Assembly: GCA_964016885.1 (NCBI GenBank)
Contig: OZ024765.1
Span: forward strand, 5,456,001 to 5,520,000
Direction: 5' to 3'
Source: Eledone cirrhosa
Lineage: Eukaryota
Length of the DNA stretch: 64,000 nucleotides
Within the stretch, counting starts at the first letter, position 1. Every line of letters starts with the position of its first letter. Below the pieces are notes generated by a model, which saw only the letters and a list, made by a program, of their open reading frames with translations, did not search any database and was not told where the DNA came from. Shown one piece after another: positions 2,410-44,435 of this stretch. The translations under genes and the position numbers were made by a program.

Positions 2410-2724
2410 TTAAATAGTTAAAGGGAGTGACCTGTGTAATACTGATCTATTAAAATATTTGACAAGTCATACTATAAGGTATCCCTCAGTTATCATGTAG
2501 TCCCAGCAATGTATTTTTCCCTAGGGCTCTAATAATTTATATAAATTAATCATCCAGCCACCATAGTGTTCTTAGCCATGATAGACACAGATCATACATC
2601 TGAAGAAGTTTCTTTTCTCACTCTCAGACGATAGCTTATCTGACTTTAATAGAACATGCTCCTAGTTCAGGTAGTGGCCCCTTTCAAGTGGCATACCCAT
2701 GGCACGTGCCATGGATGTTGGAAG

Positions 2725-5305
2725 TCTCCATTTCACTAAGGTGTAGTGTGTGATAGAGAGAAGGGATCTGGTCTGGGAGGCCAAGGATGTCTCCATTTCC
2801 CTAAGGTGTGGTGTGAGAGAGAGAGAAGGGATCTGGTCTGGGAGGCCAAGGATGTCTCCATTTCCCTAAGGTGTGGTGTGAGAGAGAGAGAAGGGATCTG
2901 GTCTGGGAGGCCAAGGATGTCTCCATTTCCCTAAGGTGTGGTGTGTGAGAGAGAGAAGGGATCTGGTCTGGGAGGCCAAGGATGTCTCCATTTCCCTAAG
3001 GTGTGGTGTGAGAGAGAGAGAGAAGGGATCTGGTCTGGGAGGCCAAGGATGTCTCCATTTCCCTAAGGTGTGGTGTGAGAGAGAGAGAGAAGGGATCTGG
3101 TCTGGGAGGCCAAGGATGTCTCCATTTCCCTAAGGTGTGGTGTGAGAGAGAGAGAGAAGGGATCTGGTCTGGGAGGCCAAGGATGTCTCCATTTCCCTAA
3201 GGTGTGGTGTGAGAGAGAGAGAGAAGGGATCTGGTCTGGGAGGCCAAGGATGTCTCCATTTCCCTAAGGTGTGGTGTGTGAGAGAGAGAAGGGATCTGGT
3301 CTGGGAGGCCAAGGATGTCTCCATTTCCCTAAGGTGTGGTGTGTGAGAGAGAGAAGGGATCTGGTCTGGGAGGCCAAGGATGTCTCCATTTCCCTAAGGT
3401 GTGGTGTGAGAGAGAGAGAGAAGGGATCTGGTCTGGGAGGCCAAGGATGTCTCCATTTCCCTAAGGTGTGGTGTGTGAGAGAGAGAAGGGATCTGGTCTG
3501 GGAGGCCAAGGATGTCTCCATTTCCCTAAGGTGTGGTGTGAGAGAGAGAGAGAAGGGATCTGGTCTGGGAGGCCAAGGATGTCTCCATTTCCCTAAGGTG
3601 TGGTGTGAGAGAGAGAGAGAAGGGATCTGGTCTGGGAGGCCAAGGATGTCTCCATTTCCCTAAGGTGTGGTGTGAGAGAGAGAGAGAAGGGATCTGGTCT
3701 GGGAGGCCAAGGATGTCTCCATTTCCCTAAGGTGTGGTGTGTGAGAGAGAGAAGGGATCTGGTCTGGGAGGCCAAGGATGTCTCCATTTCCCTAAGGTGT
3801 GGTGTGAGAGAGAGAGAGAAGGGATCTGGTCTGGGAGGCCAAGGATGTCTCCATTTCCCTAAGGTGTGGTGTGAGAGAGAGAGAGAAGGGATCTGGTCTG
3901 GGAGGCCAAGGATGTCTCCATTTCCCTAAGGTGTGGTGTGAGAGAGAGAGAGAAGGGATCTGGTCTGGGAGGCCAAGGATGTCTCCATTTCCCTAAGGTG
4001 TGGTGTGAGAGAGAGAGAGAAGGGATCTGGTCTGGGAGGCCAAGGATGTCTCCATTTCCCTAAGGTGTGGTGTGTGAGAGAGAGAAGGGATCTGGTCTGG
4101 GAGGCCAAGGATGTCTCCATTTCCCTAAGGTGTGGTGTGTGAGAGAGAGAAGGGATCTGGTCTGGGAGGCCAAGGATGTCTCCATTTCCCTAAGGTGTGG
4201 TGTGTGAGAGAGAGAAGGGATCTGGTCTGGGAGGCCAAGGATGTCTCCATTTCCCTAAGGTGTGGTGTGTGAGAGAGAGAAGGGATCTGGTCTGGGAGGC
4301 CAAGGATGTCTCCATTTCCCTAAGGTGTGGTGTGTGTGAGAGAGAGAAAGGATCTGGTCTGGGAGGCCAAGGATGTCTCCATTTCCCTAAGGTGTGGTGT
4401 GAGAGAGAGAGAGAAGGGATCTGGTCTGGGAGGCCAAGGATGTCTCCATTTCCCTAAGGTGTGGTGTGTGAGAGAGAGAAGGGATCTGGTCTGGGAGGCC
4501 AAGGATGTCTCCATTTCCCTAAGGTGTGGTGTGTGAGAGAGAGAAGGGATCTGGTCTGGGAGGCCAAGGATGTCTCCATTTCCCTAAGGTGTGGTGTGTG
4601 AGAGAGAGAAGGGATCTGGTCTGGGAGGCCAAGGATGTCTCCATTTCCCTAAGGTGTGGTGTGTGAGAGAGAGAAGGGATCTGGTCTGGGAGGCCAAGGA
4701 TGTCTCCATTTCCCTAAGGTGTGGTGTGTGTGAGAGAGAGAAGGGATCTGGTCTGGGAGGCCAAGGATGTCTCCATTTCCCTAAGGTGTGGTGTGAGAGA
4801 GAGAGAGAAGGGATCTGGTCTGGGAGGCCAAGGATGTCTCCATTTCCCTAAGGTGTGGTGTGTGAGAGAGAGAAGGGATCTGGTCTGGGAGGCCAAGGAT
4901 GTCTCCATTTCCCTAAGGTGTGGTGTGTGAGAGAGAGAAGGGATCTGGTCTGGGAGGCCAAGGATGTCTCCATTTCCCTAAGGTGTGGTGTGTGAGAGAG
5001 AGAAGGGATCTGGTCTGGGAGGCCAAGGATGTCTCCATTTCCCTAAGGTGTGGTGTGAGAGAGAGAGACGGGATCTGGTCTGGGAGGCCAAGGATGTCTC
5101 CATTTCCCTAAGGTGTGGTGTGAGAGAGAGAGAAGGGATCTGGTCTGGGAGGCCAAGGATGTCTCCATTTCCCTAAGGTGTGGTGTGAGAGAGAGAGAAG
5201 GGATCTGGTCTGGGAGGCCAAGGATGTCTCCATTTCCCTAAGGTGTGGTGTGAGAGAGAGAGAAGGGATCTGGTGTGGGAGGCTAAGGATGTCGGAAGTC
5301 TCCAC
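2725..5305. repeat. 65-67 bp minisatellite (~39 units), length varies in an internal (GT)/(GA) run
   Basis: Unit GTCTCCATTTCCCTAAGGTGTGGTGT(GA)nAGGGATCTGGTCTGGGAGGCCAAGGAT. Confidence 0.96.
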
Positions 5306-8555: not shown

Positions 8556-9121
8556 CCCTTTACCATTTACATTACTCTATATATACTATTGTATTTTCAC
8601 GGTAAAGGCTTTACCTCACATAATATCTCACATAACATTTACATTACTCTATATATACTATTGTATTTTCATGGTAAAGGCTTTACCTCACATAATATCT
8701 CACATAACATTAACATTACTCTATATATACTATTGTATTTTCACAGTAAAGGCTTTACCTCACATAATATCTCACATAACATTAACATTACTCTATATAA
8801 ACTATTGTATTTTCACAGTAAAGGCTTTACCTCACATAATATCTCACAACATTCACATTACTCTATATATACTATTATATTTTCATGGTAAAGGCTTTAC
8901 CTCACATAATATCTCACATTACTCTATATATACTATTGTATTTTCACAGTAAAGGCTTTACCTCTCATAATATCTCACATAATATCGAATCTATGAAATT
9001 TTGGAAGTATTTATTTTGAGAACAATACCTTAACATCAGTTTGAGTGACCAGTTACAGCCAGTTTCAACAGCAGAAGGTAGAGAATTCTGGCCGGTTTTG
9101 GCCAGTTTGAACATTAAAGGG
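8556..9121 (+). mobile_element. piggyBac-type non-autonomous element (MITE) with ~6 internal 72-bp satellite units
   Basis: TTAA (8552-8555) | CCCTTTA...TAAAGGG | TTAA (9122-9125); unique 3' segment shared with 41605-41743. Confidence 0.85.
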
Positions 9122-9584
9122 TTAATGTTTTTGACACAAACGTGGCCACAATCAGTTTCTATTTAAATTAAACTCTTCCAATTTTACATAGGAACTATAT
9201 GTTAAGTCACTGTTTTAATAATGCAATAATGTATAATTTTAGCGTGGAAAATGGATGTTAAACAATGATGATATCTTTCTGAAGTTAATAACATAAAATA
9301 CCACTCTGTGTACTGGGGGTGATATAATCGACTTTGCCTTCCCCAAGAATTGTTGGTCTTGTAACCTAACATATAAAGCACTATAAATACTTTCACAAAA
9401 GTTTTAAATTGGTGGGATGACCACATCTGGAGTACCTTTGATCATAGGTCTAACTGAGTCAATGGTTCCCAAGCTTTTGTGCACAATGCCCCACCTTAAC
9501 AAACATCTCAAATGTTCTTATTCCCGCCTCCATGATATGAAAACAGCGATGTTTAACAGCAAACTGTAAACAAATTGGTCTCTA

Positions 9585-10450
9585 GGTGGTGCCAGACGTA
9601 CAATAACATGTGGTGGAGGTGAGACAGGAATTTCTGACTAATGTCTACCAAAGTTATCTTGGTGTAGGTGGTGCCAGATGTACAATAACATGTGGTGGAG
9701 GTGAGACAGGAGTTTCTGACTGTAATGTCTACCAAAGTTACCTTGGTGTAGATGGTGCCAGATGTACAATAACATGTGGTGGAGGTGAGACAGGAGTTTC
9801 TGACTAGAATGTTTACCAAAGTTACCTTGGTGTAGGTGGTGCCAGATGTACAATAACATGTGGTGGAGGTGAGACAGGAGTTTCTGACTGTAATGTCTAC
9901 CAAAGTTACCTTGGTGTAGGTGGTGCCAGATGTACAATAACATGTGGTGGAGGTGAGACAGGAGTTTCTGACTGTAATGTCTACCAAATTTACCTTGGTG
10001 TAGGTGGTGCCAGATGTACAATAACATGTGGTGGAGGTGAGACAGGAGTTTCTGACTGGAATGTCTACCAAAGTTACCTTGGTGTAAGTGGTGCCAGATG
10101 TACAATAACATGTGGTGGAGGTGAGACAGGAGTTTCTGACTGGAATGTCTACCAAAGTTACCTTGGTGTAGGTGGTGCCAGATACACAATAACATGTGGT
10201 GGAGGTGAGACAGGAGTTTCTGACTGTAATGTCTACCAAAGTTACCTTGGTGTAGGTGGTGCCAGATGTACAATAACATGTGGTGGAGGTGAGACAGGAG
10301 TTTCTGACTGTAATGTCTACCAAAGTTACCATGGTGTAGGTGGTGCCAGATGTACAATAACATGTGGTGGAGGTGAGACAGGAGTTTCTGACTGTATTGT
10401 CTACCAAACCTGAAGTTTGGTATCTGGCACCACCTACACCAAGACAACAT
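9585..10450. repeat. 84-bp tandem repeat (~10 units) followed by an inverted partial unit
   Basis: Period 84 (9661 to 10081 = 5x84); 10424-10449 is the reverse complement of GTTRYCTTGGTGTAGGTGGTGCCAGA. Confidence 0.93.
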
Positions 10451-12969: not shown

Positions 12970-13107
12970 TCATTTCTACAGCTGAGTAAACTGGAGCAGC
13001 ATGAAATAAAGTGTCTTGCTCAAGGAAACAACATATCACCCGGTCTGAGAATTGAACTCACAACCTTTCGATTGCAAGCCCAATGCTCTAACCACTAAGC
13101 CAATTGC

Positions 13108-17551: not shown

Positions 17552-17892
17552 ATCATCATCATCATCATCATTTTACGTCCGCTTTTCCCTGCTTGCAAGG
17601 GTGGGACGGGAACTGATTCTGGCTTGATTTCTACAGCTGGATGCCCTTCCTAACACCAACCTCATTTACAGTGAGTGCTGGGTGATTTTTTGCCATGGCA
17701 CCTCCACGACCACTTTGCAGTGGAATGATAGAGACCCCAGTCCCTATCATCTCATTTCTACAGCTGAGTAAACTGGAACAATGTGAAATAAAGTGTCTTG
17801 CTCAAGGAAACAACACATCACCCAGTCTGAGAATTGAACTCACAACCTTTCGATTGCAAGGCCAATGCTCTAACCACTAAGCCATGTGCTTC
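17552..17892 (-). mobile_element. SINE family 1, full length with (ATG)n tail
   Basis: A/B boxes at ~17830-17885; (CAT)n at 17552-17570. Confidence 0.88.
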
Positions 17893-27674: not shown

Positions 27675-28135
27675 CATAACATTTACATTACTCTATATAT
27701 ACTATTGTATTTTCATGGTAAAGGCTTTACCTCTCAATATCTCACATAACATTTACATTACTCTATATATACTATTGTATTTTCATGGTAAAGGCTTTAC
27801 CTCACATAATATCTCACATAACATTTACATTACTCTATATATACTATTGTATTTTCACAGTAAAGGCTTTACCTCACATAACATTTACATTACTCTATAT
27901 ATACTATTGTATTGTCACAGTAAAGGCTTTACCTCATATAATATCTCACATAACATTTACATTACTCTATATATACTATTATATTTTCACAGTAAAGGCT
28001 TTACCTCACATAATATCTCACATAACATTTACATTACTCTATATATACTATTATATTTTCACAGTAAAGGCTTTACCTCACATAATATCTCACATAATAT
28101 CAAATCTATGAGATTTTGAAAGTATTTATTTTGAG
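27675..28135 (+). repeat. 72-bp satellite (~6 units) plus start of the MITE's unique 3' segment; truncated copy
   Basis: Same unit, followed by ATCTATGAGATTTTGAAAGTATTTATTTTGAG. Confidence 0.9.
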
Positions 28136-30199: not shown

Positions 30200-30246
<47 letters not shown>

Positions 30247-30476
30247 TTAGAAACACACAGATACATGCGGACACACACATATATACATGAATGCATCCGC
30301 ACCCAACTGTGAGTTAAGGGTGCCAACTTCACCGATGTTGCTCAATGAATGACTGGGACAGACCAATTCAGTTTGAACCAGACTGAACCAGTATCAGAGT
30401 TAAAAATACATTATGAAGAGAGAAGAAACATTTAGATATAATTAGTAATAAAATGTATCATACCTAAACTGTTCCT

Positions 30477-30573
30477 AAATTCCTCGACTACGTAGTTTCG
30501 TGGCATAAACAAAAACAATATATCAAAGATATAGAGTCCTTGCGAGGTCTGCCGACTTATCAAGAGGATACCT
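30477..30573 (-). ncRNA. Type I hammerhead ribozyme, U3-A8 core (family A, copy 1)
   Basis: Reverse complement of 32749-32845. Confidence 0.8.
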
Positions 30574-31067
30574 CATTTTACTAGTCTCAAGAACGCGTCT
30601 ACACGACGTGAGAAAGAATCCCAAAAGGCGGAGGGGGAGATAGTCACGCGATATAACGGTCGAGAAACAGAGCTAAGCCTCCTATAACCACGAAAAAAAT
30701 ACCACGGAGGCGGAGGGGGCATTCATATCGAGGCCGTAGAAGAGGTAGTGAAGAAGGCGAGAAGTATGAGTAATGGAAGCTTTCCAGTTGTCCCCACACT
30801 TCAAAGATTGCTCGACCAGAGGGAGTTATTAATACATTTAGAAACACACAGATACATGCGGACACACACATATATACATGAATGCATCCGCACCCAACTG
30901 TGAGTTAAGGGTGCCAACTTCACCGATGTTGCTCAATGAATGACTGGGACAGACCAATTCAGTTTGAACCAGACTGAACCAGTATCAGAGTTAAAAATAC
31001 ATTATGAAGAGAGAAGAAACATTTAGATATAATTAGTAATAAAATGTATCATACCTAAACTGTTCCT

Positions 31068-31164
31068 AAATTCCTCGACTACGTAGTTTCGTGGCATAAA
31101 CAAAAACAATATATCAAAGATATAGAGTCCTTGCGAGGTCTGCCGACTTATCAAGAGGATACCT
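31068..31164 (-). ncRNA. Type I hammerhead ribozyme, U3-A8 core (family A, copy 2)
   Basis: +591 from copy 1. Confidence 0.8.
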
Positions 31165-31658
31165 CATTTTACTAGTCTCAAGAACGCGTCTACACGACGT
31201 GAGAAAGAATCCCAAAAGGCGGAGGGGGAGATAGTCACGCGATATAACGGTCGAGAAACAGAGCTAAGCCTCCTATAACCACGAAAAAAATACCACGGAG
31301 GCGGAGGGGGCATTCATATCGAGGCCGTAGAAGAGGTAGTGAAGAAGGCGAGAAGTATGAGTAATGGAAGCTTTCCAGTTGTCCCCACACTTCAAAGATT
31401 GCTCGACCAGAGGGAGTTATTAATACATTTAGAAACACACAGATACATGCGGACACACACATATATACATGAATGCATCCGCACCCAACTGTGAGTTAAG
31501 GGTGCCAACTTCACCGATGTTGCTCAATGAATGACTGGGACAGACCAATTCAGTTTGAACCAGACTGAACCAGTATCAGAGTTAAAAATACATTATGAAG
31601 AGAGAAGAAACATTTAGATATAATTAGTAATAAAATGTATCATACCTAAACTGTTCCT

Positions 31659-31755
31659 AAATTCCTCGACTACGTAGTTTCGTGGCATAAACAAAAACAA
31701 TATATCAAAGATATAGAGTCCTTGCGAGGTCTGCCGACTTATCAAGAGGATACCT
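31659..31755 (-). ncRNA. Type I hammerhead ribozyme, U3-A8 core (family A, copy 3)
   Basis: +591 from copy 2. Confidence 0.8.
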
Positions 31756-32249
31756 CATTTTACTAGTCTCAAGAACGCGTCTACACGACGTGAGAAAGAA
31801 TCCCAAAAGGCGGAGGGGGAGATAGTCACGCGATATAACGGTCGAGAAACAGAGCTAAGCCTCCTATAACCACGAAAAAAATACCACGGAGGCGGAGGGG
31901 GCATTCATATCGAGGCCGTAGAAGAGGTAGTGAAGAAGGCGAGAAGTATGAGTAATGGAAGCTTTCCAGTTGTCCCCACACTTCAAAGATTGCTCGACCA
32001 GAGGGAGTTATTAATACATTTAGAAACACACAGATACATGCGGACACACACATATATACATGAATGCATCCGCACCCAACTGTGAGTTAAGGGTGCCAAC
32101 TTCACCGATGTTGCTCAATGAATGACTGGGACAGACCAATTCAGTTTGAACCAGACTGAACCAGTATCAGAGTTAAAAATACATTATGAAGAGAGAAGAA
32201 ACATTTAGATATAATTAGTAATAAAATGTATCATACCTAAACTGTTCCT

Positions 32250-32346
32250 AAATTCCTCGACTACGTAGTTTCGTGGCATAAACAAAAACAATATATCAAA
32301 GATATAGAGTCCTTGCGAGGTCTGCCGACTTATCAAGAGGATACCT
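32250..32346 (-). ncRNA. Type I hammerhead ribozyme, U3-A8 core (family A, copy 4)
   Basis: +591 from copy 3. Confidence 0.8.
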
Positions 32347-32748
32347 CATTTTACTAGTCTCAAGAACGCGTCTACACGACGTGAGAAAGAATCCCAAAAG
32401 GCGGAGGGGGAGATAGTCACGCGATATAACGGTCGAGAAACAGAGCTAAGCCTCCTATAACCACGAAAAAAATACCACGGAGGCGGAGGGGGCATTCATA
32501 TCGAGGCCGTAGAAGAGGTAGTGAAGAAGGCGAGAAGTATGAGTAATGGAAGCTTTCCAGTTGTCCCCACACTTCAAAGATTGCTCGACCAGAGGGAGTT
32601 ATTAATACATTTAGAAACACACAGATACATGCGGACACAGGAGGCTTAGCTCTGTTTCTCGACCGTTATATCGCGTGACTATCTCCCCCTCCGCCTTTTG
32701 GGATTCTTTCTCACGTCGTGTAGACGCGTTCTTGAGACTAGTAAAATG

Positions 32749-32845
32749 AGGTATCCTCTTGATAAGTCGGCAGACCTCGCAAGGACTCTATATCTTTGAT
32801 ATATTGTTTTTGTTTATGCCACGAAACTACGTAGTCGAGGAATTT
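32749..32845 (+). ncRNA. Type I hammerhead ribozyme, U3-A8 core (family A, copy 5)
   Basis: AGGTATCCTC TTGATAA GTCGGCA...TGCCAC GAA ACTACGTAGT C^ GAGGAATTT; stem I TCCTC/GAGGA; GUC cut after 32836. Confidence 0.82.
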
Positions 32846-33339
32846 AGGAACAGTTTAGGTATGATACATTTTATTACTAATTATATCTAAATGTTTCTTC
32901 TCTCTTCATAATGTATTTTTAACTCTGATACTGGTTCAGTCTGGTTCAAACTGAATTGGTCTGTCCCAGTCATTCATTGAGCAACATCGGTGAAGTTGGC
33001 ACCCTTAACTCACAGTTGGGTGCGGATGCATTCATGTATATATGTGTGTGTCCGCATGTATCTGTGTGTTTCTAAATGTATTAATAACTCCCTCTGGTCG
33101 AGCAATCTTTGAAGTGTGGGGACAACTGGAAAGCTTCCATTACTCATACTTCTCGCCTTCTTCACTACCTCTTCTACGGCCTCGATATGAATGCCCCCTC
33201 CGCCTCCGTGGTATTTTTTTCGTGGTTATAGGAGGCTTAGCTCTGTTTCTCGACCGTTATATCGCGTGACTATCTCCCCCTCCGCCTTTTGGGATTCTTT
33301 CTCACGTCGTGTAGACGCGTTCTTGAGACTAGTAAAATG

Positions 33340-33436
33340 AGGTATCCTCTTGATAAGTCGGCAGACCTCGCAAGGACTCTATATCTTTGATATATTGTTT
33401 TTGTTTATGCCACGAAACTACGTAGTCGAGGAATTT
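33340..33436 (+). ncRNA. Type I hammerhead ribozyme, U3-A8 core (family A, copy 6)
   Basis: +591; cut after 33427. Confidence 0.8.
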
Positions 33437-33930
33437 AGGAACAGTTTAGGTATGATACATTTTATTACTAATTATATCTAAATGTTTCTTCTCTCTTCAT
33501 AATGTATTTTTAACTCTGATACTGGTTCAGTCTGGTTCAAACTGAATTGGTCTGTCCCAGTCATTCATTGAGCAACATCGGTGAAGTTGGCACCCTTAAC
33601 TCACAGTTGGGTGCGGATGCATTCATGTATATATGTGTGTGTCCGCATGTATCTGTGTGTTTCTAAATGTATTAATAACTCCCTCTGGTCGAGCAATCTT
33701 TGAAGTGTGGGGACAACTGGAAAGCTTCCATTACTCATACTTCTCGCCTTCTTCACTACCTCTTCTACGGCCTCGATATGAATGCCCCCTCCGCCTCCGT
33801 GGTATTTTTTTCGTGGTTATAGGAGGCTTAGCTCTGTTTCTCGACCGTTATATCGCGTGACTATCTCCCCCTCCGCCTTTTGGGATTCTTTCTCACGTCG
33901 TGTAGACGCGTTCTTGAGACTAGTAAAATG

Positions 33931-34027
33931 AGGTATCCTCTTGATAAGTCGGCAGACCTCGCAAGGACTCTATATCTTTGATATATTGTTTTTGTTTATG
34001 CCACGAAACTACGTAGTCGAGGAATTT
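33931..34027 (+). ncRNA. Type I hammerhead ribozyme, U3-A8 core (family A, copy 7)
   Basis: +591; cut after 34018. Confidence 0.8.
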
Positions 34028-34521
34028 AGGAACAGTTTAGGTATGATACATTTTATTACTAATTATATCTAAATGTTTCTTCTCTCTTCATAATGTATTT
34101 TTAACTCTGATACTGGTTCAGTCTGGTTCAAACTGAATTGGTCTGTCCCAGTCATTCATTGAGCAACATCGGTGAAGTTGGCACCCTTAACTCACAGTTG
34201 GGTGCGGATGCATTCATGTATATATGTGTGTGTCCGCATGTATCTGTGTGTTTCTAAATGTATTAATAACTCCCTCTGGTCGAGCAATCTTTGAAGTGTG
34301 GGGACAACTGGAAAGCTTCCATTACTCATACTTCTCGCCTTCTTCACTACCTCTTCTACGGCCTCGATATGAATGCCCCCTCCGCCTCCGTGGTATTTTT
34401 TTCGTGGTTATAGGAGGCTTAGCTCTGTTTCTCGACCGTTATATCGCGTGACTATCTCCCCCTCCGCCTTTTGGGATTCTTTCTCACGTCGTGTAGACGC
34501 GTTCTTGAGACTAGTAAAATG

Positions 34522-34618
34522 AGGTATCCTCTTGATAAGTCGGCAGACCTCGCAAGGACTCTATATCTTTGATATATTGTTTTTGTTTATGCCACGAAAC
34601 TACGTAGTCGAGGAATTT
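34522..34618 (+). ncRNA. Type I hammerhead ribozyme, U3-A8 core (family A, copy 8)
   Basis: +591; cut after 34609. Confidence 0.8.
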
Positions 34619-34683
34619 AGGAACAGTTTAGGTATGATACATTTTATTACTAATTATATCTAAATGTTTCTTCTCTCTTCATA

Positions 34684-35140
<457 letters not shown>

Positions 35141-39485: not shown

Positions 39486-41743
39486 CCCTTTAGAATTTAC
39501 ATTACTCTATATATACTATTGTATTGTCACAGTAAAGGCTTTACCTCACATAATATCTCACATAACATTTACATTACTCTATATATACTATTGTATTTTC
39601 ACAGTAAAGGCTTTACCTCACATAATATCTCACATAACATTTACATTGCTCTATATATACTATTGTATTTTCACAGTAAACGCTTTACCTCACATAATAT
39701 CTCACATAACATTTACATTACTCTATATATACTATTGTATTTTCACAGTAAAGGCTTCACCTCACATAATATCTCACATAACATTTACATTGCTCTATAT
39801 ATACTATTGTATTTTCACAGTAAACGCTTTACCTCACATAATATCTCACATAACATTTACATTACTCTATATATACTATTGTATTTTCACAGTAAAGGCT
39901 TTACCTCACATAATATCTCACATAACATTTACATTACTCTATATATACTATTGTATTTTCACAGTAAAGACTTTACCTCACATAATATCTCACATAACAT
40001 TTACATTACTCTATATATACTATTGTATTTTCACAGTAAAGGCTTTACCTCACATAATATCTCACATAACATTTACATTACTCTATATATACTATTGTAT
40101 TTTCACAGTAAAGGCTTTACCTCACATAATATCTCACATAACATTTACATTACTCTATATTTACTATTGTATTTTCACAGTAAAGGCTTTACCTCACATA
40201 ATATCTCACATAACATTTACATTGCTCTATATATACTATTGTATTTTCACAGTAAAGGCTTTACCTCACATAACATTTACATTACTCTATATATACTATT
40301 GTATTGTCACAGTAAAGGCTTTACCTCACATAATATCTCCCATAACATTTACATTACTCTATATATACTATTGTATTTTCACAGTAAAGGCTTTACCTCA
40401 CATAATATCTCACATAACATTTACATTACTCTATATATACTATTGTATTTTCACAGTAAAGGCTTTACCTCACATAATATCTCACATAACATTTACATTA
40501 CTCTATATATACTATTGTATTTTCACAGTAAAGGCTTTACCTCACATAATATCTCACATAACATTTACATTACTCTATATATACTATTGTATTTTCACAG
40601 TAAAGACTTTACCTCACATAATATCTCACATAACATTTACATTACTCTATATATACTATTGTATTTTCATAGTAAAGGCTTTACCTCACATAACATTTAC
40701 ATTACTCTATATATTCTATTGTATTTTCACAGTAAAGGCTTTACCTCACATAATATCTCACATAACATTTACATTACTCTATATATACTATTGTATTTTC
40801 ACAGTAAAGGCTTTACCTCACATAATATCTCACATAACATTTACATTACTCTATATTTACTATTGTATTTTCACAGTAAAGGCTTTACCTCACATAATAT
40901 CTCACATAACATTTACATTGCTCTATATATACTATTGTATTTTCACAGTAAAGGCTTTACCTCACATAACATTTACATTACTCTATATATACTATTGTAT
41001 TGTCACAGTAAAGGCTTTACCTCACATAATATCTCCCATAACATTTACATTACTCTATATATACTATTGTATTTTCACAGTAAAGGCTTTACCTCACATA
41101 ATATCTCACATAACATTTACATTACTCTATATATACTATTGTATTTTCACAGTAAAGGCTTTACCTCACATAATATCTCACATAACATTTACATTACTCT
41201 ATATATACTATTGTATTTTCACAGTAAAGGCTTTACCTCACATAATATCTCACATAACATTTACATTACTCTATATATACTATTGTATTTTCACAGTAAA
41301 GACTTTACCTCACATAATATCTCACATAACATTTACATTACTCTATATATACTATTGTATTTTCACAGTAAAGACTTTACCTCACATAATATCTCACAAA
41401 ACATTTACATTACTCTATATATACTATTGTATTTTCACAGTAAAGACTTTACCTCACATAATATCTCACATAACATTTACATTACTCTATATATACTATT
41501 GTATTTTCACAGTAAAGACTTTACCTCACATAATATCTCACATAACATTTACATTACTCTATATATACTATTGTATTGTCACAGTAAAGGCTTTACCTCA
41601 CATAATATCGAATCTATGAGATTTTGAAAGTAGTTATATTGAGAGCAATACCTTAACATCAGTTTGAGCGACCAGTTACAGCCAGTTTCAACAGAAAAGG
41701 TAGAGAATTCTGGCCGGTTTTGGCCGGTTTGAACACTAAAGGG
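39486..41743 (+). mobile_element. piggyBac-type MITE with ~30 internal 72/60-bp satellite units
   Basis: TTAA (39482-39485) | CCCTTTAG...CTAAAGGG | TTAA (41744-41747); empty-site paralog at 43866. Confidence 0.9.
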
Positions 41744-42497: not shown

Positions 42498-42699
42498 CCA
42501 GGAAAAGTCAAGTAGTACAAGAGGAAGAGGTACGGAAGAAAGTGGAGGAGGTTTTAAGACTTCTCTCTCTCTCACCTCATCTTCTCTCGCTCCCTTCATC
42601 CCCCTCATAAACCCCACCCTCTTTGCCCTTCCCTCACCCCAGCAGCTGTAAATTTGTCTGTACACTATTGTGTGTTGTTTCTCTTAAAGACAGCTGCAC

Positions 42700-43800
42700 C
42701 TATAGACCTGGTCGCTAGATATGCTAGAAATAGCAGTTGCAAACCCTATAGACCTGCTCGTTAGATATGCTAGAAATAGCAGTTACAAACCCTATAGACC
42801 TGGTCGCTAGATATGCTAGAAATAGCAGTTGCAAACTCTATAGACCTGCTCGTTAGATATGCTAGAAATAGCAGTTACAAACTCTATAGACCTGGTCGCT
42901 AGATATGCTAGAAATAGCAGTTGCAAACTCTATAGACCTGCTCGTTAGATATGCTAGAAATAGCAGTTACAAACCCTATAGACCTGGTCGCTAGATATGC
43001 TAGAAATAGCAGTTGCAAACCCTATAGACCTGCTCGTTAGATATGCTAGAAATAGCAGTTACAAACCCTATAGACCTGGTCGCTAGATATGCTAGAAATA
43101 GCAGTTGCAAACTCTATAGACCTGCTCGTTAGATATGCTAGAAATAGCAGTTACAAACCCTATAGACCTGGTCGCTAGATATGCTAGAAATAGCAGTTAC
43201 AAACCCTATAGACCTGGTCGCTAGATATGCTAGAAATAGCAGTTGCAAACCCTATAGACCTGGTCGCTAGGTATGCTAGAAATAGCAGTTACAAACTCTA
43301 TAGACCTGGTCGCTAGATATGCTAGAAATAGCAGTTACAAACCCTATAGACCTGGTCGCTAGATATGCTAGAAATAGCAGTTACAAACCCTATAGACCTG
43401 GTCGCTAGATATGCTAGAAATAGCAGTTGCAAACTCTATAGACCTGGTCGCTAGATATGCTAGAAATAGCAGTTGCAAACCCTATAGACCTGGTCGCTAG
43501 GTATGCTAGAAATAGCAGTTACAAACTCTATAGACCTGGTCGCTAGATATGCTAGAAATAGCAGTTGCAAACTCTATAGACCTGGTCGCTAGATATGCTA
43601 GAAATAGCAGTTACAAACCCTATAGACCTGGTCGCTAGATATGCTGGAAATAGCAGTTACAAACTCTATAGACCTGGTCGCTAGATATGCTAGAAATAGC
43701 TGTTACAAACTCTATAGACCTGGTCGCTAGATATGCTAGAAATAGCAGTTACAAACTCTATAGACCTGGTCGCTAGATATGCTAGAAATAGCAGTTGCAA
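42700..43800. repeat. 46-bp minisatellite (~24 units)
   Basis: TATAGACCTGGTCGCTAGATATGCTAGAAATAGCAGTTRCAAACYC; the first ~10 units alternate two variants. Confidence 0.95.
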
Positions 43801-44435
43801 ATGTTTATAGTATCTTTACTGGTGGACAGATTGTTGTGAAAATTTACAGTATTACAGTAAAGACTTTAATATTTAATGTGATGCAGTCATAGTGTTGTTT
43901 TGTACTAAATGTTTATAGTATCTTTACTGGTGGACAGATTGTTGTGAAAATTTACAGTATTACAGTAAAGACTTCAATATTTAATGTGGTGTAGTCAGAG
44001 TGTTGTCTTGTATTTTTCAAGATTGTCTTGCTGAGGTAGATTCATGGTGTTTGTTAATTTAAATGTTTAAACCTAGTGGTATTTGAATTCAGAACAATGT
44101 AAAGCGTTGTAACTATGACTCAAAGCATTTTGTTCCATTCTCTCTCCAATACTGCTGATCCTCAGTCTTTGCCAATCCATACTTCTTATTAAGGCACAAG
44201 GCCAGGAGCAGGAAAGTTGATTACATTGTCACATATATAACTGGTGGAGGGGAAGGCAGGTATTCTGTATTGCTGCATAATGTCACTATTTCAATCAACC
44301 CCAGTATGTTACTGGTATTCTACTTTATTGATCTCGGCAATATTTGAACTGAGAAAGTAAAAGTGCCAAAACAGCCAATCCATGTGTGTACATGTGACTA
44401 TGTGTGTGTGTGTGTGTGTGTGTGTGTACATGTGA

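Follow-up and report, generated by a model that had tools for sequence, protein, structure and literature searches.

How a non-coding repeat came to lie head to head with itself between two (TA)n tracts is the question raised by one locus in a window of Eledone cirrhosa DNA, the window being the whole stretch analysed (64,000 nt). Period analysis of the 64-kb window gave a two-armed element at 30241-34689, 4,449 nt long and built from a 591-nt unit. Its features are listed in Table 1, with unit positions numbered from the predicted hammerhead cut after 32836. The anatomy described in the original prediction (outward-pointing head-to-head arms of non-integer length, a one-letter overlap at the junction, AATGTAT at both outer ends, (TA)n beyond) was confirmed in every particular. 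AATGTAT occurs only twice per unit, at 74-80 and 239-245, and these are the two outer ends; both pass directly into perfect (TA)n. A 29-nt string taken across the junction occurs once in the 3.0-Gb genome. No junction-bridging piece was found among the pieces listed from the four sequencing runs compared with the junction, and the case for a real junction at 32639 was made from the family pattern, not from reads.

Table 1. Coordinates of the two-armed array and its parts within the window.
Feature	Position	Strand	Details
Left (AT)n target tract	30203-30243	.	TRF, 20.5 copies, 100%
Left arm	30241-32639	-	2,399 nt = 4.06 units; 100.00% identity to one unit; inner end +211, outer RNA-3' end +245 (site B)
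Site B terminus AATGTAT, putative reverse-transcription start	30241-30247	-	
Hammerhead copies, left arm (predicted)	32254-32341, 31663-31750, 31072-31159, 30481-30568	-	Sequence and period
Head-to-head junction, 1-nt overlap	32639	.	Unique in genome
Right arm	32639-34689	+	2,051 nt = 3.47 units; 100.00% identity to one unit; inner end +394, outer RNA-3' end +80 (site A)
Predicted type I hammerhead, U3-A8 core, palindromic stem III, predicted cut after 32836	32754-32841	+	Motif scan and stem variants across loci
Further hammerhead copies, right arm (predicted)	33345-33432, 33936-34023, 34527-34614	+	Placed by 591-nt period
One 591-nt monomer between predicted cut sites (predicted circle)	32837-33427	+	
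The 165 nt from site A to site B, counterpart of the Penelope 'tail'	32917-33081	+	
Site A terminus AATGTAT, putative reverse-transcription start	34683-34689	+	
Right (TA)n target tract	34687-34798	.	TRF, 56 copies, 100%

Other repeats were present in the window. tRNA-like heads of a probable SINE lie at 34801-34858 (+), 13044-13103 (-) and 17823-17886 (-), the first beginning immediately past the right (TA)n tract. A dispersed 72-bp satellite occurs in both orientations (1-2409, 8564-8982, 27675-28097 and 39495-41609), and arrays of 65-, 84- and 46-bp units were found at 2720-5293, 9583-10408 and 42699-43801, respectively.

The putative hammerhead was identified by hand and with a custom motif scan; Rfam returned only tRNA-like matches at gathering score and no hammerhead model at E up to 5. 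The U3-A8 core is a published hammerhead variant, described in Penelope-like elements (PMC4209133), and stem III forms a perfect palindrome of 10 nt. Relatives show covariation in all three stems (I, II and III) through compensatory changes, and stem III remains a palindrome there. The commonest form of the motif was seen 271 times across the fetched loci, and the core has 7,047 exact matches in the 3.0-Gb genome. Folded as a circle, the sense strand gave -173.4 kcal/mol (z = -5.6 against 30 shuffles) and the antisense strand -132.0 kcal/mol; proximity of sites A and B was not found in the predicted circular fold (graph distance 54, median 50). The unit has no ATG open reading frame above 75 aa (longest 75 aa) and is non-autonomous, lacking a reverse transcriptase and GIY-YIG frame. 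It also has no LTR, its ends running directly into (TA)n.

By its sequence, the 591-nt repeat matches the animal non-LTR retrozymes, as a non-coding unit with a predicted hammerhead. With those described in metazoans (PMC7229834; 10.64898/2026.07.22.740005) it shares non-coding tandem copies, one type I hammerhead per unit, a GC content below 50%, a unit length within the reported 51-972 bp and coexistence with Penelope-like elements. Animal retrozymes are reported to be expressed as circles, and their copying into tandem cDNA has been proposed (PMC7229834). The 591-nt family differs in that its ends are fixed at two sites and in that about 62% of the loci examined are head-to-head; the accessible text of the same two sources does not describe insertion ends or inverted arms ('inverted' gave no match in that of PMC7229834). 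A cephalopod repeat annotation contains no hammerhead or retrozyme entry.

The family was then sampled at 117 loci: the window, 36 loci from among the best whole-unit matches, and loci chosen by the A end (20), the B end (40) and the ribozyme core (20). All have distinct flanks, and with the 7,047 core matches they mark the family as dispersed, multicopy and mobile. Two arms were present at 73 of the 117 loci, head-to-head at all 73; a layout shared so widely is not due to chance, and it recurs in copies diverged by 5-14%. Sixty of the first 97 loci had been picked for their A or B end; such a choice determines one terminus of an insertion and leaves its partner free. These 97 contained 64 two-armed insertions, comprising 61 with one A and one B end, no A+A, no B+B and three others, one of which (L035) proved by eye to have an A end with substitutions. 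The 20 ribozyme-core loci contributed nine two-armed insertions, seven A+B (one with its B end read at +253), two others and again no same-site pair, which brings the pooled count to 68/73 A+B and zero same-site. Two further loci scored as one-armed bear an A stub of 15-16 nt.

RNA-3' ends fell in windows spanning about 4% of the unit in 54/56 cases in the set chosen by whole-unit score and in 25/29 (26 by eye) in the set chosen by ribozyme core. The termini of the family are two fixed RNA-3' sites, +80 (A) and +245 (B), and the arms of an insertion use different sites. The original prediction had overlooked this different-site rule, and with it the match to the published 'tail at one end' of Penelope insertions. 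It had proposed circularly permuted ends, which these counts contradict. Fixed termini had been named there as evidence against its reading; found here in two-site form, they remove the argument from permutation and do not remove the circle. Selection of the priming sites by TAT microhomology, also proposed, did not hold either: the unit contains five better matches to (TA)n, of 5-7 nt against 3 nt at A and B, and none of the five is used as a 3' end.

The exact A-end/(TA)n pattern has 1,852 matches in the genome, and two spellings of the B-end/(TA)n pattern have 139 and 680. (TA)n was present on both sides of 59/64 two-armed and 23/33 one-armed loci, so that the (TA)n flanks seen in the window were found at other loci as well. 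Loose ends entered (TA)n at site B in one sequencing run, and a contig ended at B plus (TA)n in another; both observations carry little weight. At L074 and L086, entire two-armed insertions with their flanks are tandemly duplicated, with periods of 2,554 and 2,648 bp.

Inversion points, predicted to vary between loci, did so without exception: all 61 A+B inner junctions are distinct. Arm lengths were uncorrelated (rho 0.04), and the offset between inner ends was uniform around the unit (Rayleigh p 0.38; smallest 6 nt, most above 100 nt). The longer arm was A in 23/42 loci and B in 18/42, and both cDNAs ran past the other's start in 23/42. Of the 61 junctions, 52 had no added bases and showed a mean microhomology of 1.58 nt against 0.65 by chance, a value reached in 0/20,000 resamples; the other nine had 1-19 added bases. 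Matching patterned flanks were found at 6/64 loci, against a mean of 0.9 and a maximum of 4 in shuffles, which agrees with a single staggered cut. Such junction features would be expected if two cDNAs, each primed independently, had been joined 3' end to 3' end, and the claim that both target ends primed cDNA is supported by them and by the uniform head-to-head layout. A test for a roadblock between the two cDNAs was negative: B arms of at most 165 nt numbered 8/42 (9.2 expected) and A arms of at most 426 nt 14/42 (18.8 expected). As neither cDNA appears to block the other, a single shared template would need efficient mutual displacement, or else the templates were separate.

In L1 twin priming, the first cDNA is extended until close to the second start. 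The RNA is primed by each of the two target ends, one at the poly(A) end and the other at a chance internal match, and the 3' ends of the cDNAs join by microhomology (PMC2912911). Priming by both target ends and microhomology joining are common to L1 and the 591-nt family, but the latter lacks poly(A) and both of its putative starts are internal and fixed; it works like L1-type twin priming and is not an instance of it. Penelope-like elements form inverted, 5'-truncated copies with a 30-40-bp tail that is often one-sided and a bias for (TA)n (PMC8557442, PMC8969392). Insertions of the endonuclease-bearing elements resemble the present ones in the head-to-head copy, the one-sided tail, the (TA)n preference and partial tandems, and multicopy non-autonomous forms (MRC1) are known (PMC8557442, PMC3846280). 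The 591-nt family departs from them in having no protein, a tail of 165 nt and arms of up to several units on both sides; the tail is called optional in print, whereas the use of one site of each kind is near-strict here. The insertion marks of Penelope are present in the family, namely the inverted copy (73/73), the one-sided tail (68/73) and the microsatellite target.

The purified Poseidon protein of Anolis cuts and extends both target strands (Frangieh et al., 2024, PMC11167929). Synthesis begins at two internal sites, one at either limit of the tail, and a dimeric form is predicted for the protein; in the in vitro account no difference in start site was seen between strands, and ribozyme cleavage was unnecessary (PMC11167929). 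The two internal starts downstream of a hammerhead and bounding a tail, and the AT-rich target, have counterparts in the two fixed sites and the (TA)n tracts of the 591-nt family, for which cutting and extension of both strands by a dimer are proposed as well. The differences are that the RNA used in vitro was linear, that inversions were left unexplained, and that the starts there are non-homologous to the target; in the 591-nt family, both sites end in TAT. The termini at +80 and +245 and their pairing were observed directly; that they serve as start sites is suggested by the Poseidon work (PMC11167929). We consider Penelope-type twin priming at two fixed sites very probable for this family.

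The template was examined through haplotypes. At 13 diagnostic sites in 59 loci with both arms longer than 40 nt, the arms differed at 2/363 subfamily-diagnostic cells, against 20% (minimum 11%) in 2,000 shuffles, a null that ignores possible dominance of one source locus in a cell's RNA pool, so that concordant arms are no proof of one molecule. A sample-private variant was present in every pass of both arms at 11/117 loci. Variants common to at least four loci filled all units in 237 cells and only some units in 10. At six positions around the cut site, 287 passes contained five non-reference letters and no scar. Together, these observations indicate that each insertion traces to one monomer sequence, made multimeric without seams. 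The proposal that a circular or multimeric template was copied for several rounds therefore stands in part: arms often exceed one turn of the unit while keeping to a single haplotype, as would fit a template that is circular or derived from a monomer, and the support once drawn from permuted ends is gone. A circle is most simply the explanation of seamless monomer-derived multimers, and rolling-circle copying of the 591-nt unit is likely; a multimer replicated from RNA to RNA is indistinguishable from a circle by these data. On balance a circular monomer seems the probable template, and whether literally the same RNA molecule served both arms could go either way.

Some loci depart from this pattern. 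The two arms of L059 carry different subfamily haplotypes. At L036:4594-4890 a B arm abuts, in head-to-head orientation, a different Penelope-like family at its ribozyme-like 3' end; this partner matches a copy in L171 at 98%, the joint contains 35 nt of sequence from an older subfamily, and the locus is either a chimeric event or an adjacency. Both L059 and L036 look like mixed templates. L093 repeats three variants in two adjacent units and gained one unit by duplication after insertion, so arrays can grow post-insertion. Five private variants occur in exactly one unit per arm (L039, L060, L065 and L126). Four of them are out of phase; the fifth, in L126, is in phase in both arms, 967 and 802 nt from the ends, a difference of 165. 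There were 10 partial variants in all, against 0.1-0.3 coincidences expected. Rereading of a damaged template base, template switching during fill-in or later conversion between arms could produce the one-per-arm variants. Two closed contigs of 620-621 nt (X1 and X9) came from two runs of unrecorded kind. They were weighed as possible circles and not taken as evidence, since high-copy tandem DNA at trace coverage would fit equally well.

The array at 30241-34689 is a young insertion and ordinary for its family. We think it probable that a Penelope-type enzyme cut both (TA)n strands and that the two cut ends primed reverse transcription at separate fixed sites of the RNA; a single circular monomer was the probable template. 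In outline, a tandem copy would be transcribed and cut by its hammerheads to 591-nt monomers, which would circularise as in the retrozyme literature. An endonuclease-bearing Penelope-like protein, probably a Neptune-type dimer, would bind the RNA downstream of the ribozyme and nick both (TA)n strands. One target end would start at +80 and the other at +245, if the start sites behave as those of Poseidon (PMC11167929). Each enzyme would then run for an independent distance, often beyond one turn, presumably by strand displacement; the observed lengths are roughly exponential. The cDNA 3' ends would join through 0-5 nt of microhomology, and fill-in by a presumed repair route would give the head-to-head junction. 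A more specific arrangement, in which the dimer holds one circular ribozyme RNA with its active sites on the two fixed positions and runs two simultaneous rolling-circle reverse transcriptions from a double-strand cut, is put forward tentatively, at somewhat below even chances. If true, it would explain inverted copies, the one-sided tail and tandems across the whole Penelope class, and these arrays would record, in the genome, rolling-circle reverse transcription that took place in an animal germline.

Instead of one molecule, two distinct RNAs of common source could have supplied the two fixed sites, such as monomers that pair through the palindromic stem III as a double hammerhead and are bound one to each enzyme subunit. 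Arm lengths free of a roadblock signature would be expected of such templates, the palindromic stem III kept in relatives is an arrangement that works as a dimer (PMC4209133), and the rare mixed insertions L059 and L036 point the same way. But 68 A+B insertions and no same-site ones are not accounted for simply by equal RNAs on a symmetric dimer, and rare variants are common to both arms; we judge separate molecules unlikely. Twin priming at A and B on a linear multimeric RNA, from read-through of an uncut array or as an RNA-to-RNA rolling-circle product, is less probable again, and we would give it a small chance. It accords with insertion in vitro that needs no ribozyme cutting (PMC11167929), with cleavage of only one of nine Xenopus retrozyme dimers in vitro (10.64898/2026.07.22.740005), with the in-phase variant of L126 and with autonomous elements that form 4.1-kb tandems with the same ends. 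Against it, subfamily variants fill all units (237 cells to 10), the 10 single-unit variants common to loci are about the number that we estimate from recurrent mutation, and the four other one-per-arm variants are out of phase.

Self-priming, in which a cDNA or antisense template forms a fold-back at a palindrome and serves as its own template, was proposed from palindromes at inverted Penelope junctions (PMC3846280) and is very improbable here. The 591-nt junctions have no palindromes, the inner ends lie at unrelated unit positions with a uniform offset, either arm can be the longer, and the second arm ends at the other fixed site. The model is contradicted for the 591-nt family and may apply to families with palindromic junctions. 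An assembly or read artefact (a fold-back chimera), or two independent insertions in the same microsatellite, would suit arms that are 100% identical and a junction bridged by none of the listed reads, yet is hardly credible given an asymmetric junction (211 against 394), distinct flanks, the lack of (TA)n between the arms, 73 such loci with junctions of their own, the A+B rule, and older copies (86-95% identity) that are laid out alike.

Having weighed these alternatives, we retain Penelope-type twin priming at two fixed sites, with a circular monomer as the probable template. Earlier publications describe inverted copies, the tail at one end and a pair of start sites. A rule of one site per target end, or haplotypes tying both arms to one monomer, was not found in print, though supplements and subscription papers may bear on it; the origin of tandem and inverted Penelope-like structures has been called undefined (PMC8557442). 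The value of the present data lies in the family-level rule, the single locus being ordinary and its structural hallmarks in print. The rule makes the Penelope insertion mechanism testable, argues against the published self-priming model for 591-nt insertions, and gives predictions that can be counted: each target end has its own start site, the arm lengths are independent, joining is by microhomology and an insertion carries a single haplotype.

Relatives and candidate partner elements were sought in the same genome. An older relative (L177-L201; 2,123 candidates) has a 612-nt unit about 72% alike; among 23 distinct loci inspected by eye, 16/17 two-armed insertions were A+B, the exception being L200, with two A ends 207 nt apart. 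Of 10,597 candidate GIY-YIG matches, 150 were scored. Among 50 GIY-YIG loci from these candidates, no autonomous element was found whose terminal repeat is homologous with the unit; similarity did not go beyond TA/TG microsatellite, and the mobilising protein is thus inferred. One young autonomous family (L202-L221 and L172) has a 4.1-4.2-kb unit encoding a reverse transcriptase, a Cx4CxxC linker and GIY-YIG, the linker marking the Neptune clade (PMC8557442). All 40 of its scored 3' ends were 100% identical (40/40; 1,188 candidates), and by eye it has a minimal hammerhead with a palindromic stem III. Counted from the family's own ribozyme-like motif, its ends lie at +127 and +188, and 6/7 loci with both ends visible, among 23 examined, had one of each; at L221 the arms end at +432 and +435 in non-TA flanks. 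A second Neptune family had one of each at its single two-armed locus (1/1). The short end motifs of the 591-nt unit resemble those of the two Neptune families only loosely. The 591-nt substrate and the young Neptune-type proteins of the same genome suit reconstitution. Short palindromic stumps of the 3' end of another Neptune family were also seen beside insertions, in the flanks of L231, L184, L239 and L065.
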